From a virus (taxonomy: Duplodnaviria > Heunggongvirae > Uroviricota > Caudoviricetes): a DNA stretch of 63,899 bases. Positions within the stretch are counted from its first letter, which is position 1; every line of letters begins with the position of its first letter. Both the position numbers and the translations under genes were made by a program. Of this stretch, positions 1 to 63,353 are shown piece by piece. The stretch lies in the IMG/VR virus record IMGVR_UViG_643348545_000007. One strand, given 5' to 3'. The notes below the pieces were generated by a model that saw only the letters and a program-made list of their open reading frames with translations, was not told where the DNA came from and searched no databases.

Positions 1-579
1 TTAGCCGTTAAGTTTAACTGCCAGACCTGCGACATATTCCCCTTGATAACGAGCAATAGACAGTTCTTCCTGGCTGGGCTGGCGTGAACCGTCACCGCCT
101 GCGATGGTGGTTGCGCCGTACGGCGTACCGCCGCGAACCTGTGAAACGTCAAATAATTCCTGCGCTGCGTAGCCAATGGGGACAATCACCATGCCGTGAT
201 GCGCAAGGGTCGTCCAGGTGGATGTGATGGTTTGTTCCTGACCGCCGCCAGTACCGGTGGAACTAAAGACGCTCGCCAGTTTTCCGTATAGTGCGCCGGA
301 AGCCCACAGGCCGCCCGTCTGGTCGAGGAAGGTACGCATTTGACCGGACATGTTACCAAAGCGGGTAGGTGTACCAAAAATAATGGCGTCGTAATCGGCC
401 AGTTCTTGCGGGGTTGCAACCGGTGCAGTTTGCGTTTTACCGCCTGCTTTTTCAAATAATTGCGGCGGCATGGTTTCCGGTACACGCTTAACGACAACTT
501 CTGCGCCATCCACTTTGCTTGCACCCTCAGCAACTGCGCGTGCCATCGTTTCAACATGTCTAAGGATATGCTTTATCAT
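1..579 (-). CDS. wrbA: WrbA NAD(P)H:quinone oxidoreductase; 3' ~560 bp host-derived, first codons supplied by the prophage at attL
   Basis: Translation matches E. coli WrbA from [16 protein letters not shown] to the C-terminal GLAVKLNG; N-terminus MIKHILRHV replaces native MAKVLVLYYSMYGHI; ATG at 577-579 (minus). Confidence 0.85.
548..560. other. attL core (GTTTCAACATGTC)
   Basis: Point where wrbA homology ends; same 13-mer with one mismatch at 63304-63316. Confidence 0.6.
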
Positions 580-1886
580 TTTGAAAAATATAATTTTATT
601 TCATCCTCCTGGTCACTTTGGGGCACGTCTGGGGCACGGGCATTAAGGACATTATTCAGCATAGCAACCTGAGTCACGCTGCACTCAGGCATCCATGCAC
701 CATAAACATTGTAGACCATGCTGGCGCTGGAGTGCCCCATCTGTGATGCAATAAATGTCGGGTTTGCTCCGGCAGATAAAGCCCAGCACGCATAAGTATG
801 GCGTGACTGATATGCTTTCCGGGCTCTTATACCCGCTCTTTTCATTGCTGAGTCCCATGTTGCCCCGATGGAGCTTACCGCATAGTTAATACCCGCCTTG
901 TGATTCTTGCGAACGATTTGCGGACAGAAAACAAAAGTGCACTCGTGCAAAATTGTTCTTCCGTACTCGCGTAATTTAACGGTGATCTGATGCTGCCTGC
1001 CAAGACGAGTAAGCATCGCCTGGTTTTTAAGTGCTTCAATGGCTGGTGCCAGAAGATGTATAACCCGGTCGGTGCCAGCATCAGTCTTTGGTAGCGTAAA
1101 ATCACCTATTTTTGTAAAATTTCTTCGCACTGTTATCGTGCCAACTTTCAGGTCGATATCCTCCCATGCAAGTGCGGCAATTTCACCATGTCGCATCCCC
1201 GTAAAAACAGCCACTGTCCAGAGGTTTTTGGTCTGTTGATGATGACAGGCATCAATGAGGCGACCAAACTCCTCTCTGGTCAGTGGATCCGGCACAGGTT
1301 TTGATTTCCTCAGTGGTGTTATTGAATTAAACGGGTTTTTCTCCAGATACCCGTTTTCAGCGGCAAAGCTGAACATCCCGGCAGTTGTTGTCATGTAATA
1401 GTTTACCGTGGGGACTGTTCTTCCTTTGTTGGTGGAAGTGTTTTTCCTGCTTTCCTTTTCCCCAGTCAGTAAATCTTTCCTGATGAACAGCAAATCCTCT
1501 TTTGTAATCGAGGATGCCAGTCTACCCACGCCAAGCCTCGGTAGCATATTTTTCATCACTGATTGATAACGATTTAAGGCGTTACTACTGATTTCCATTG
1601 CTTTCAGAGTAAGCCATTTCTGTGCCAGTTCACCGACGGTGATATCTTTTTTTACCAGGCCAAATAGCTTCAGGTTAGGTGAGTCAGGGAATCGCTCGGC
1701 ATAATCAAACGTTCCTGTTCTGATTGCAAAGCAGACCGAAGCCCTTAACTCACCAGCGATCTTTCTGTTTTTCGGTGTATCGGGCACGCGAAGATTTTCG
1801 CGCACTCGTTTACCCCTGTACTTAAACGTTATTCGGAGTTTTCCTCCGTGATTTTCAACGCCGGCTGGATAGGCTGAATTCGCCAT
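576..1886 (-). CDS. int: Phage integrase, tyrosine recombinase
   Basis: Long ORF adjacent to attL with a C-terminal region typical of tyrosine recombinases (..[15 protein letters not shown]..); ORF-track start at 1910 is GTG; ATG at 1884-1886 has AGGAGG 5 nt upstream. Confidence 0.85.
617..640. repeat. Two TGGGGCAC repeats next to attL (candidate integrase arm-type sites)
   Basis: TTTGGGGCACGTCTGGGGCACGGG; same motif repeated four times near attR (63132-63181). Confidence 0.4.
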
Positions 1887-1938
1887 TGTTCCTCCTGCGT
1901 CCAAGAGCACGCTCAGGTTATACTCTTATGGACAAGAA

Positions 1939-2223
1939 TTAAACATCCTGAGATGGTAAGGGTTGGTTTTTAATCCAGGTGTTGATGGTAGGAAGATGAT
2001 AGAGACATTCGCTGTTTTTCTTTGGCGTTCCGTCGGGGGCGATTTGTTTATATTCTCTGCCGTTCATCCACGCAGCGTCCCTGGCGCGTAATATGGTTCC
2101 TTTTCTCAGGCCTGTTACAGCCATTAAAAGCTCCAGTGTTACCCATTCATTCGCATTTATCTGTACAACAGGTGTGATGACTGGTTGAATGCCATGGCTA
2201 TGTTGGTTTACGAACTCGCGCAT
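1939..2223 (-). CDS. xis: Excisionase-like protein
   Basis: Small ORF immediately upstream of int on the same strand; ATG with GGAGG RBS. Confidence 0.6.
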   Translation of the reverse strand: MREFVNQHSHGIQPVITPVVQINANEWVTLELLMAVTGLRKGTILRARDAAWMNGREYKQIAPDGTPKKNSECLYHLPTINTWIKNQPLPSQDV

Positions 2224-2268
2224 AAGTTACCTCCGCATATGTAAGAAAAAACCGCCCGAAGGCGGTTG

Positions 2269-2529
2269 TCAGTTGATTGATGTGCGGCGCATTTTTCGAA
2301 GGCTGGCAATATGCTTTTCCTTCTCAATTTCCGCTTTAATCATATGTAGTTCGTTGTGATCGATTCGCTCAAATTCTGCATTAAATGAGTTAATTGATGC
2401 GGCTCTGGTTCTCCCATCCAGCCTTCGGAAGATCACCTGTGTCAGCGTTACCTTGCAGACTTGAACCGGATAGTTGTTGGCGTCGACGAAGGACTGCCCG
2501 CGCTGGATCAGAACGAACACAGGTAGCAT
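2269..2529 (-). CDS. Hypothetical protein
   Basis: 86-aa ORF between xis and exo, ATG with AAGGA upstream. Confidence 0.45.
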   Translation of the reverse strand: MLPVFVLIQRGQSFVDANNYPVQVCKVTLTQVIFRRLDGRTRAASINSFNAEFERIDHNELHMIKAEIEKEKHIASLRKMRRTSIN

Positions 2530-2567
2530 TCCTTAATTGTCATATCATTTGCACCTCGTTGCTACGG

Positions 2568-61562: not shown

Positions 61563-62192
61563 TCAGAATTCAAATTGTCTTGCCCGCAGGCTTTTCAGCA
61601 TTGGCATGGCCCGCTGGATAACGGAACTTGACATGTCGAGACGTGTTACCTCCCTTAGTAGCGCGTCTCTGTTCTTCGTCACCATGTAGATAGTCTCAAA
61701 CGCAATGTCATACAGCTTGTTCGTGTATGAGGAGTTCAGCTCTTTCATTATGGGGTACAGCTGCTTGCTAAGGTCCTGGGCTTTTTCCATCCAGAGTTGC
61801 ATGTAGCAAAGGAGGATGATTTCCTCGGCGGTAAATTGTGGCTGTGATTCTGCTTGTACTGGCTGAATGTTGCGAAGTTTCTTTTCGCACTCGATGAAGT
61901 AGCGGCGGATCTGGCGGCCTTTTTCGTTTCGTTCAACCATCGCAAGCTCTTTGGCTGTGTCCAGGGTGAGGTGGTAGTCCTTGCGGCGGCGGCCTAGAGT
62001 TTTCGCCAAATTTGGCGAAAATAGAATGTAGTCTAAATTTTCTACGAATCCATACTCGTTTAGCCTGGCCCGTATCCAGTTAGAAAAATCTTTACCTACC
62101 TCTAAAAACCCATGCAAATCACGCGCGTTCACCAGAAGCGTAGGTTCATTTGAGATTGTACCTTCAAACACAGGGATGAGTTGAGTGGTCAT
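61563..62192 (-). CDS. AntA-domain antirepressor-like protein with shared C-terminal domain
   Basis: N-terminal ..LLVNARDLHGFLEVGKDFSNWIRARLNEYGFVENLDYILF..DYHLTLDTAKELAMVE fits AntA; C-terminal ~95 aa near-identical to 17911..18582; ATG at 62190-62192 with AGGAGG RBS (ORF-track start further upstream). Confidence 0.65.
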   Translation of the reverse strand: MTTQLIPVFEGTISNEPTLLVNARDLHGFLEVGKDFSNWIRARLNEYGFVENLDYILFSPNLAKTLGRRRKDYHLTLDTAKELAMVERNEKGRQIRRYFIECEKKLRNIQPVQAESQPQFTAEEIILLCYMQLWMEKAQDLSKQLYPIMKELNSSYTNKLYDIAFETIYMVTKNRDALLREVTRLDMSSSVIQRAMPMLKSLRARQFEF

Positions 62193-62472
62193 GATGACCT
62201 CCTTTGGCTTTTTTCGAGAAATGCCACCACAAAATGTGGTGCCGGGAGGCTCGAAACGGCCCAAAAGATACCGCGGACTTATTCCCCTTGCGGGTGTTGT
62301 ATTCGTCGCCCTCCCGACATGGATCGGGGATGTGACCGCACATTGTGCCATCACTGAATGACAGGCATAAAAAATCCAACACTGACGGGGTTGGCTTAAT
62401 CCGCTTTTGGGAGGTTTTCGAGGTCTCGGCGCGGAGTATAGTCACTATTGGATGCTGTCGTCAACAGCGTGG

Positions 62473-62910
62473 TTACAATTCATTCCAAATGCGATAGTTT
62501 TTTATTTGCCATATTAAGCTATTGGAGACCCTGTATTTATCTGCAAGAACTGAATTTGGTACACTCATTTCATTAGCTCTTATAAATAGCACTTGCTCTT
62601 TAGTTAGTTTTGCTCGCCCATGTTTTTCATGACGTGCTTGGCGTTTTCGTTTCTGTCGATCAGCATTATTATCAAGGATTGTTCCTATTAGTAAATGCTT
62701 TGGATTACAACATGCAGGATTATCGCAAGAATGCCTGACAACCATGCCCGCAGGAATTTCTCCAATAAAAATTCGGTAAATTAACCTATGCGCGCCAGTT
62801 TTAATACGTTTACCCTTTGAGCCGATTAAAAGACGCCCATAACCAAAATCATCTTTTGGTAAAATATTTTCAATGCAATTGTCAGGAAAATTATTTAAAA
62901 GGTTTTTCAT
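62473..62910 (-). CDS. HNH endonuclease
   Basis: ..GAHRLIYRIFIGEIPAGMVVRHSCDNPACCNPKHL.. HNH motif with Cys pair. Confidence 0.75.
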   Translation of the reverse strand: MKNLLNNFPDNCIENILPKDDFGYGRLLIGSKGKRIKTGAHRLIYRIFIGEIPAGMVVRHSCDNPACCNPKHLLIGTILDNNADRQKRKRQARHEKHGRAKLTKEQVLFIRANEMSVPNSVLADKYRVSNSLIWQIKNYRIWNEL

Positions 62911-63131
62911 GAGAAGCCCGATATAAATAAAAAAGCCGCAAAGCTATCGGGTGCGGATGACCGCTTATTTGTTCAGTGCGGTCAGTATGCGATAGCTCAG
63001 GCGGATTTGTCAATCTGCGGAAATATTGATGAACGAGTGACGGTATATACCCAACCCGGACAATTAACGTAAATTCACATCGTAAACTTGCGTTAATTGT
63101 CTGAAATATCTACTTAAACCCTATTAAATTT

Positions 63132-63181
63132 TTGGGGCACTATTGGGGCAAAATGTGGTTGTTTGGGGCATATTTGGGGCA
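63132..63181. repeat. Four TTGGGGCA direct repeats (candidate integrase arm-type sites)
   Basis: Copies at 63132-63139, 63143-63150, 63163-63170 and 63174-63181, about 125-170 bp from the attR core. Confidence 0.5.
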
Positions 63182-63290
63182 AAAAAGAACGTATAAATAA
63201 CGGTGTAAAATCGATTTCTTCATGGTCAAAATGAGGTGTAACAGATTGAAAAATATGTGCTCTTGGACGATCTTCGGTAATTCTGTGTTT

Positions 63291-63353
63291 TTAATGCATC
63301 ATGGTTTCAATATGTCCGTACATGGAATAATAAAGCACCAGAACTTTAGCCAT
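63291..63353 (-). pseudogene. wrbA: wrbA 5' fragment (first 17 native codons, then a phage-derived stop)
   Basis: Minus-strand translation MAKVLVLYYSMYGHIET, then MMH-stop inside prophage DNA. Confidence 0.8.
63304..63316. other. attR core (GTTTCAATATGTC)
   Basis: 12 of 13 identical to the attL core; wrbA 5' coding sequence resumes here. Confidence 0.6.

Follow-up and report, generated by a model that had tools for sequence, protein, structure and literature searches.

A lambdoid prophage with a 933W/Sp5-type attachment module in Escherichia coli wrbA and candidate arm-type sites for its integrase

Occupancy of wrbA is a routine marker in the typing of Shiga toxin (Stx) prophages, and phage integration in this Escherichia coli gene is in itself already known. 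For the Sakai prophage Sp5, excision and circularization have been shown by experiment, and an Sp5-like recombinant phage was integrated at wrbA of K-12 (PMC2669165). The sequence CATCGTTTCAATATGTC is given as the known attachment site of phage 933W in K-12 wrbA (bioRxiv 10.1101/2022.08.08.503262). The PF12167/DUF3596 arm-binding domain defines the Int_BPP-1 subgroup of integrases (BPP-1, Stx2a phage, and Gifsy-2), in which the Stx2a phage integrase is named as an example; Smyshlyaev et al. term these integrases "putative" and list no arm sites (bioRxiv 10.1101/542381). Here, we analyzed a 63,899-nucleotide stretch of viral DNA, IMG/VR record IMGVR_UViG_643348545_000007 (hereafter the window), in which a prophage interrupts wrbA. 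We describe its attachment (att) sites, its integrase (Int), the TGGGGCA repeats found near both junctions, and a chimeric wrbA open reading frame (ORF) at the left junction.

The minus-strand wrbA gene is interrupted by a lambdoid prophage of 62,756 bp (555..63310), the ends of which are ambiguous by a 7-bp overlap. The following features define the insertion; attB is the empty bacterial site, attP the site of the free phage, and attL and attR the left and right prophage junctions.

1..554, minus strand: bacterial 3' part of wrbA, comprising native codons 18-198 and the stop codon; Glu16 and Thr17 fall within the shared overlap; colinear with K-12
544..560, plus strand: attL, 17-bp homology CATCGTTTCAACATGTC; left mismatch of bacterial type (C547), right mismatch of phage type (C555)
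548..554, plus strand: attL overlap (crossover), GTTTCAA
555..63310: prophage, stx-negative and lambdoid, with a PhiR5_2-like body and an int/xis/att module of 933W/Sp5 type
63291..63353, minus strand: orphaned 5' end of wrbA, still preceded by its native promoter region; the 17 native codons are followed by phage-encoded M-M-H-stop
63300..63316, plus strand: attR, 17-bp homology CATGGTTTCAATATGTC; left mismatch of phage type (G63303), right mismatch of bacterial type (T63311)
63304..63310, plus strand: attR overlap, GTTTCAA
63726..63899, plus strand: ymdF, the usual right-hand neighbor of wrbA
empty K-12 site (attB): gccatCgtttcaaTatgtccgtac, also written gccatCgtttcaaTatgtcc
free-phage attP (Stx2 phage II and phi315): cttcatGgtttcaaCatgtctaagg, also written cttcatGgtttcaaCatgtct
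attL of the window (544-560) in the same site alignment: catCgtttcaaCatgtc
attR of the window (63300-63316) in the same site alignment: catGgtttcaaTatgtc

In-silico removal of 555..63310 yielded a 198-aa WrbA identical to that of K-12 at 198/198 residues, and the resulting 1,143-nt stretch was colinear with K-12 at 1,135 positions. The first position of the window coincides with the wrbA stop codon, and the spacing from ymdF to the wrbA start equals that of K-12. An earlier note, made from the sequence alone, had placed the 3' portion of a split wrbA at the left end and the first 17 codons at 63303-63353 (minus strand), a description that agrees with the intact gene restored by excision. It had also proposed that these codons run into a phage-derived stop, and indeed the native sequence (MAKVLVLYYSMYGHIET) continues into the phage as MAKVLVLYYSMYGHIETMMH followed by a stop codon.

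At the junctions, 544-560 and 63300-63316, lies an imperfect 17-bp repeat with the pattern CAT[C/G]GTTTCAA[C/T]ATGTC. This pattern occurred only twice within the window, where 0.07 occurrences are expected by chance, and attB and attP have 15 of the 17 bp in common. GTTTCAA (548-554 and 63304-63310) is the sole stretch identical across attB, attP, attL, and attR. At its two sides, attL has C and C and attR has G and T, so that in each junction the two mismatched bases, one bacterial and one phage, flank GTTTCAA. This reciprocal pattern, seen by comparison with the uninterrupted K-12 wrbA-ymdF locus (attB gccatCgtttcaaTatgtcc), indicates that strand exchange must have taken place within the 7-bp overlap and upholds the site-specific integration into wrbA that the note had suggested. 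The same 7 bp are labeled "attachment site" in GenBank AP000422 (VT2-Sakai) and NC_004914 (Stx2 phage II). The 13-bp cores of the earlier note, GTTTCAACATGTC at 548-560 and GTTTCAATATGTC at 63304-63316, do lie at those coordinates as the inner portion of the 17-bp repeat, but they are over-extended: they comprise the 7-bp overlap plus 6 bp of the imperfect right flank, with one base differing. We rejected the 13-bp core as the crossover region, since it includes a C/T difference, at 555/63311, that segregates together with the arms. Precise excision would give the attP circle junction CATGGTTTCAACATGTC and the repaired attB CATCGTTTCAATATGTC. Judged by these alignments, the insertion is into the standard attB, which corresponds to codons 14-18 of E. 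coli wrbA. The identical attL junction is found in 216 of 5,426 complete E. coli genomes, and public records already contain the attachment site and the core as well as the chimeric ORF.

The recombination genes adjoin attL.

576..1886, minus strand: integrase, 436 aa, with Arm-DNA-bind_2 and a tyrosine recombinase catalytic domain; Int_BPP-1 subgroup
1939..2223, minus strand: excisionase (Xis), 94 aa, Pfam DUF1233 "putative excisionase" (E=1.3e-30)

Residues 7-70 of Int matched Pfam Arm-DNA-bind_2 (E=8e-26), the protein also matched Phage_integrase (E=7.6e-17) and, weakly, solved tyrosine recombinases, and it was 95-97% identical to the integrases of wrbA-integrating Stx phages. Homologous loci annotate the Xis counterpart as excisionase. 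For the stretch wrbA-int-xis, matches covering at least 80% of 3 kb were found in 111 complete E. coli genomes, with ~95.7% identity; the genes are annotated there as wrbA, tyrosine integrase, and excisionase. The remainder of the prophage was 97-98% identical to phage PhiR5_2, which carries a different integrase, and the two were colinear (93% coverage and 98% identity over the window stretch compared; the host given in the PhiR5_2 record is K-12 MG1655). The association of a PhiR5_2-like body with another integrase therefore designates the att/int/xis module as a mosaic cassette of the 933W/VT2-Sakai (Sp5) type.

The module has in common with 933W, VT2-Sakai (Sp5), Stx2 phage II, and the Stx1 phage (Morioka) the same attB, the GTTTCAA overlap, the 17-bp homology, the same sequences of the two attP arms (P and P') with all six TGGGGCA copies described below, and the same chimeric wrbA ORF. 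The prophage as a whole differs from them by its PhiR5_2-like mosaic, which lacks stx and tRNA genes and has two STnc100 copies in the place of stx, by a lysine as residue 3 of the chimera where they have an asparagine, and by an HNH gene beside the P arm, with homology to the right ends of the other wrbA prophages starting only at 62927. In a search for stx, no ORF longer than 97 aa was found between Q (20328-20954) and the 667-aa ORF at 22374; no stx is annotated within positions 1-30,000 of the PhiR5_2 record, and no tRNA gene was found in the window. On this comparison, the att module is a member of the 933W/Sp5 wrbA family, carried by a phage that is itself not a Stx phage.

The heptamer TGGGGCA has 11 copies in the window, against 10.8 expected overall, and its distribution sets the copies near the junctions apart. 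Six of the 10 plus-strand copies form three exact TGGGGCA-N4-TGGGGCA pairs (619-636, 63133-63150, and 63164-63181), and no further pair of this kind was found anywhere in the window, even with two mismatches allowed. They make up the following candidate sites.

619..636, plus strand: candidate arm-type pair of the P' arm, TGGGGCACG twice (619-627 and 630-638) in an 11-bp phase, within the 3' coding end of int
63131..63184, plus strand: four candidate arm-type sites of the P arm, TGGGGCA at 63133, 63144, 63164, and 63175, in two 23-nt units

Monte Carlo simulation produced four same-strand copies within 60 bp in 0 of 200,000 trials and three pairs at exactly 11-bp spacing in 0 of 200,000 trials. 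The earlier note had correctly counted two copies near attL and four near attR; they lie at 619/630 and at 63133/63144/63164/63175 and cluster beyond chance. In the reconstructed attP, all six copies share one orientation; from the center of the overlap, the P' pair is centered at about +71 and +82 and the P-arm sites at about -129 to -171. The P-arm block is identical in Stx2 phage II, phi315, and VT2-Sakai, and the Stx2 phage II record NC_004914 has a repeat_region annotated in the P arm that overlaps the block, at the place where these repeats begin. We also considered an inverted copy at 733-739 as a third P' site and rejected it: it encodes Q-M-G-H, a conserved motif of the integrase catalytic domain, whose Gly codon varies freely among relatives. 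By this codon comparison, the inverted copy is a coincidence.

To compare these repeats with those of other phages, we retrieved 73 loci encoding integrase relatives from other species. Most IMG/VR prophage calls stop just past int and yield attL variants only; complete phage records were used for attP and the P arm. About 40 enterobacterial loci located at other genes, such as the presumed yecE and fliE (Int 52-70% identity), have TGCCCCA-N4-TGCCCCA at the same place of the int 3' end, where the encoded peptide is a conserved (F)AP-x-(M/V)P(H/Q). In a codon-entropy analysis of 41 distinct relative sequences, the four codons of the motif had third-position entropies of 0.00, 0.00, 0.28, and 0.00 bit, whereas codons for invariant Gly, Val, and Ala residues close by reached 1.76-1.94 bit. 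The codon preceding the motif encodes F, N, D, Y, or T, and its third base is T in all cases. In distant relatives (30-45% identity), the pair is noncoding and lies past the int stop codon, and there both copies vary jointly (TGTCCCA twice, TGCCCCG twice); marine gammaproteobacterial relatives of ~30% identity have TGGTCCCA twice after the stop codon. Complete phages with an internal attP show a second pair across the core, ~170-190 bp past the int stop: Klebsiella Mulock (65%), Providencia PSTRCR_117lys (53%), and Aeromonas pAEv1818 (38%), the last with the variant CGCCCCA-N4-TGCCCCA on both arms. Phage phiCTX (32%), which inserts at tRNA-Ser, has GTTCCCA-N4-GTTCCCA on each side of its tRNA-Ser core, and the cores of the relatives share CATGTT(A/G)A. 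The pair-core-pair layout is thus retained in relatives down to ~30% identity.

The helical-turn phasing, the presence on both arms, the concerted change, and the arm-binding domain of Int together argue for arm-type sites rather than for a Xis site confined to one arm or a coding artifact, so the TGGGGCA repeats are very probably integrase arm-type sites, as candidates derived from sequence comparison. Their arrangement resembles that of lambda in several respects: a 7-bp overlap, xis beside int, int adjoining the P' arm, repeated arm sites on both arms, and a hairpin beyond att placed like sib. The distances of the arm sites from the overlap (about +70 to +85 and -130 to -170) are close to those of lambda. 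Unlike in lambda, the arm-binding domain is PF12167, the motif is TGGGGCA (C/AAGTCACTAT in lambda), the pairs are strictly spaced at 11 bp with all copies in one orientation, and the P' pair lies within the int coding sequence. In relation to the Int_BPP-1 study (bioRxiv 10.1101/542381), with which our integrase has the PF12167/DUF3596 domain in common, an 11-bp paired G(C/T)CCCA motif would be an addition and not a contradiction. This comparative support for a paired arm-site motif across the PF12167 group is a modest new element; it offers a testable motif, present on both arms, for the little-studied PF12167 (Int_BPP-1) integrases and could aid the automatic definition of attP boundaries.

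At attL, the prophage completes an in-frame ORF with the remaining part of wrbA, in agreement with the earlier note.

1..579, minus strand: chimeric WrbA ORF, 192 aa (579 bp), phage codons plus WrbA 16-198

The note had attributed a new ATG and six codons to the prophage. The ATG is there, and the phage contribution is slightly larger: it provides IKHILRH and the first base of the Val codon after the ATG. At 579-577, this ATG shares two bases with the int stop codon (578-576), forming ATGA; in the free phage, the same ATG opens a 14-codon ORF of no obvious purpose. Residues 8-192 of the chimera are identical to residues 14-198 of WrbA in the Protein Data Bank, and residues 1-7 are phage specific. 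WrbA residues 1-13 correspond in the flavodoxin-like fold to the central beta1 strand together with most of the FMN-phosphate loop. The N-terminal loop A of flavodoxin-like quinone reductases binds the flavin phosphate (PMC4274662). Given the missing beta1 and most of the phosphate loop, the lysogen is therefore expected to be functionally WrbA negative. The idea of a "reconstituted" WrbA is consequently not supported beyond the ORF itself: seven unrelated residues replace residues 1-13, Pfam FMN_red matches the chimera only from profile position 17 of 152 (the Flavodoxin_1 match starts at position 9), and there is no Shine-Dalgarno sequence at a usable distance from the chimeric ATG, the nearest AGGAGG being 28 nt upstream. 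A promoter scan showed no excess over chance on either side (chimera side, 2 found versus 3.0 expected from shuffled controls). A weak sigma-70-like match at 616-587 (minus strand; GTGACC-18-TATATT, 9/12) was rejected as a promoter of the truncated wrbA because it is at chance level; transcription from it would start about at the chimeric ATG and yield a leaderless mRNA. We conclude that the chimeric WrbA is most likely a by-product and probably not a working enzyme.

By analogy with lambda Int, these elements fit the following scheme. The stx-negative phage, equipped with a 933W/VT2-Sakai-type int-xis-attP module, would integrate by conservative tyrosine-recombinase recombination. The heterobivalent 436-aa Int would bind the core through its C-terminal domains and the 11-bp-phased TGGGGCA pairs through its N-terminal Arm-DNA-bind_2 domain, bridging arm and core, and Xis, probably with integration host factor (IHF), would set the direction of the reaction. 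Integration would cut wrbA off from its promoter and first 17 codons. The 192-aa ORF would arise from the chance in-frame position of the phage ATG that overlaps the int stop, and the lysogen would be functionally WrbA negative until precise excision restores the gene. We hold this joint reading, namely 933W/Sp5-type integration at the wrbA attB, an Int that uses arm sites, and a by-product chimera, to be highly likely. Several points weigh against it. The inverted symmetry of the attP overlap flanks, and with it the inverted core-type repeat beside the overlap, amounts to just 4 bp (CATG/CATG). The case for IHF is weak, as the one 1-mismatch match between core and P-arm sites doubles as an inverted core-like copy. 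The role assigned to WrbA residues 1-13 leans on general textbook knowledge of the fold, and an AlphaFold2 model of the chimera from its single sequence was uninformative (pLDDT 35) and was discarded. The ATGA overlap of int stop and start is a classic layout for translational coupling and could allow the production of some chimeric protein. Finally, RefSeq labels the equivalent 579-bp ORF of other lysogens as intact wrbA (WP_000607018.1) and not as a pseudogene.

These last two points would suit a phage that evolved to rebuild a working wrbA, in which ribosomes ending int re-initiate and make a shortened, active WrbA so that lysogeny is cost-free for the host. The ORF is in frame and open in all wrbA lysogens examined, and the phage-encoded H-V-E-T-M mimics the native H-I-E-T-M. 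This likeness is, however, the 17-bp att homology read as codons, and the mimicry is limited to that homology, which the recombinase needs; the seven extra residues are unlike the 13 that they replace. Phage 21/e14 at icd and tRNA-integrating phages rebuild the genes into which they insert. With these gene-rebuilding phages, the present one shares a short imitation of the target gene in attP across the crossover, but here the insertion is 5', there is neither a phage promoter nor a ribosome-binding site, and seven unrelated codons stand for 13 structurally essential ones. The phage-supplied codons differ among lysogens by nonsynonymous changes only, and int is normally silent in a lysogen, as established for lambda. 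Among the Int relatives, whose targets we take to be yecE (at codon ~30, with the phage side reading ...ARHV and no start codon) and the fliE 3' end, those in the 5' part of yecE bring no start codon in frame, and those at the fliE 3' end supply a replacement C terminus. Greater sensitivity to oxidative stress has been reported for a 933W lysogen of K-12, weak evidence since the whole prophage confounds it. A wrbA rebuilt by selection is therefore, in our view, very improbable, and we regard a coupled translation product with some activity as equally improbable. The most far-reaching form of the idea, in which the ATGA junction is functional and gives truncated WrbA whenever int is transcribed while the orphaned promoter couples host stress to the prophage, is likewise very improbable. 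If true, truncated WrbA would be made only with int transcription, at establishment or induction; it might interfere with tetrameric WrbA-like proteins as a dominant-negative partner, or it might be an active enzyme whose N terminus is remodeled. The stationary-phase wrbA promoter at attR would read through the P arm into the HNH and antirepressor genes, linking host stress signaling to prophage behavior.

The arm-site assignment has a competitor of its own, in which the int copies merely encode a conserved A-P-x-x-P peptide and the attR copies are a chance duplication or the sites of another protein (Xis, a repressor, or a packaging or replication factor were considered). The P' pair does lie in coding sequence for the conserved peptide, the P-arm copies do belong to a duplicated 23-nt unit, and literature searches on arm sites bound by the 933W, phiCTX, or PF12167 integrases turned up nothing relevant and no Int-binding or footprint report. 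Yet the synonymous positions of the motif are invariant where adjacent four-fold sites are nearly saturated, the pair is noncoding in the relatives of 30-45% identity, and the same heptamer in the same orientation on both arms, with concerted change between lineages, is what is expected of an arm-bridging protein. The Xis of lambda binds one arm only, and Int has a dedicated arm-binding domain. We consider it highly unlikely that the repeats are anything other than arm sites; the domain, the layout kept in relatives, and the frozen synonymous positions are all consistent with the arm-type sites first suggested in the earlier note. A broader objection is that the whole element might be a fixed, defective remnant unable to excise, with att features that are relics. 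Many E. coli prophages are defective, and this one is without the stx and tRNA genes of its Stx relatives; however, xis and the full-length int are intact, as are both 7-bp overlaps and all six repeats, and the length of 62.8 kb with PhiR5_2 colinearity argues for a complete genome. A defective remnant thus appears unlikely, and integration of a 933W/Sp5-type module with a by-product chimera remains the reading that we favor.

The labeling of the 192-aa fusion as intact wrbA can mislead analyses of gene content and of mutations. A "wrbA G25A (Val9Ile) mutation" has been reported in EDL933 clones that had lost 933W (bioRxiv 10.1101/2022.08.08.503262). Position 25 of the chimeric ORF falls in the GTT codon at 555-553, which precise excision converts to the native ATT (Ile15), so the reported G25A/V9I change is probably an attL-to-attB reversion read against the annotation of the lysogen. 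A stx-negative phage with the same int/att module would also compete with Stx2 phages for the wrbA site.

Other elements lie in or beside the P arm.

63059..63101, minus strand: hairpin of the distal P arm, near-perfect 20-nt arms (-23.5 kcal/mol, z=-3.4)
63239..63251, minus strand: IHF-like site TTTCAATCTGTTA, differing at one base from the IHF consensus WATCAANNNNTTR and situated between core and P-arm sites

The hairpin is kept in four attP/attR sequences (the relatives being Stx2 phage II, phi315, and VT2-Sakai), among which a compensatory change replaces one A-U pair by G-C. In attP it would lie ~220 nt downstream of the int stop, and in the prophage it is parted from int; by its position, it is a candidate sib-like or terminator element. 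IHF-like matches with one mismatch occur at 63239-63251 and 63122-63134, versus 0.16 expected. The sequence at 63239-63251, read as TTTCAATCTGT, is also an inverted near-copy of the core TTTCAATATGT (63305-63315), 53 bp apart; it may serve IHF or act as a secondary core-type site. An HNH endonuclease gene (Pfam HNH_3; 62473-62910, minus strand) lies directly inside the P arm. Since homology to other wrbA prophages begins only at 62927, this gene is an insertion or replacement peculiar to the present mosaic. The orphaned wrbA promoter and its 17 codons face the prophage interior and are co-oriented with the HNH and antirepressor genes (62910..61563); a simple scan found no convincing terminator between them; read-through from the host promoter into phage genes is speculative.

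Several RNA elements and genes of the prophage body were also observed. Two tandem copies of the STnc100 small RNA (Rfam RF02076; 140 and 130 bits) occupy 21495-21688 and 21964-22172 (plus strand), downstream of the Q antiterminator gene, where Stx phages have tRNAs and stx. The RNAs isrK (RF01394; 17670-17747) and C4 antisense RNA (RF01695; 17773-17857), both on the plus strand, lie just 5' of a 223-aa ORF (17911-18582) whose PhiR5_2 counterpart is annotated as an antirepressor, and the region looks like a P1/Gifsy-type RNA-controlled antirepressor module. A HigB/HigA-like toxin-antitoxin pair is encoded at 16964-17729 (minus strand). Directly upstream of an AntA/AntB-type antirepressor gene, sRNA-Xcc1 (RF02221, 74.5 bits) was detected at 62233-62318 (minus strand); the antirepressor ORF, listed as 61563-62354, probably starts at ~62194, behind an AGGAGG. 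A 2,787-aa ORF (50384-58747, plus strand) belongs to phrog_616, of unknown function, and has a weak DarB-like region. A PAPS-reductase-like and ParB-like gene pair, presumably IbrA/IbrB-like, is found at 59511-61366 (minus strand).

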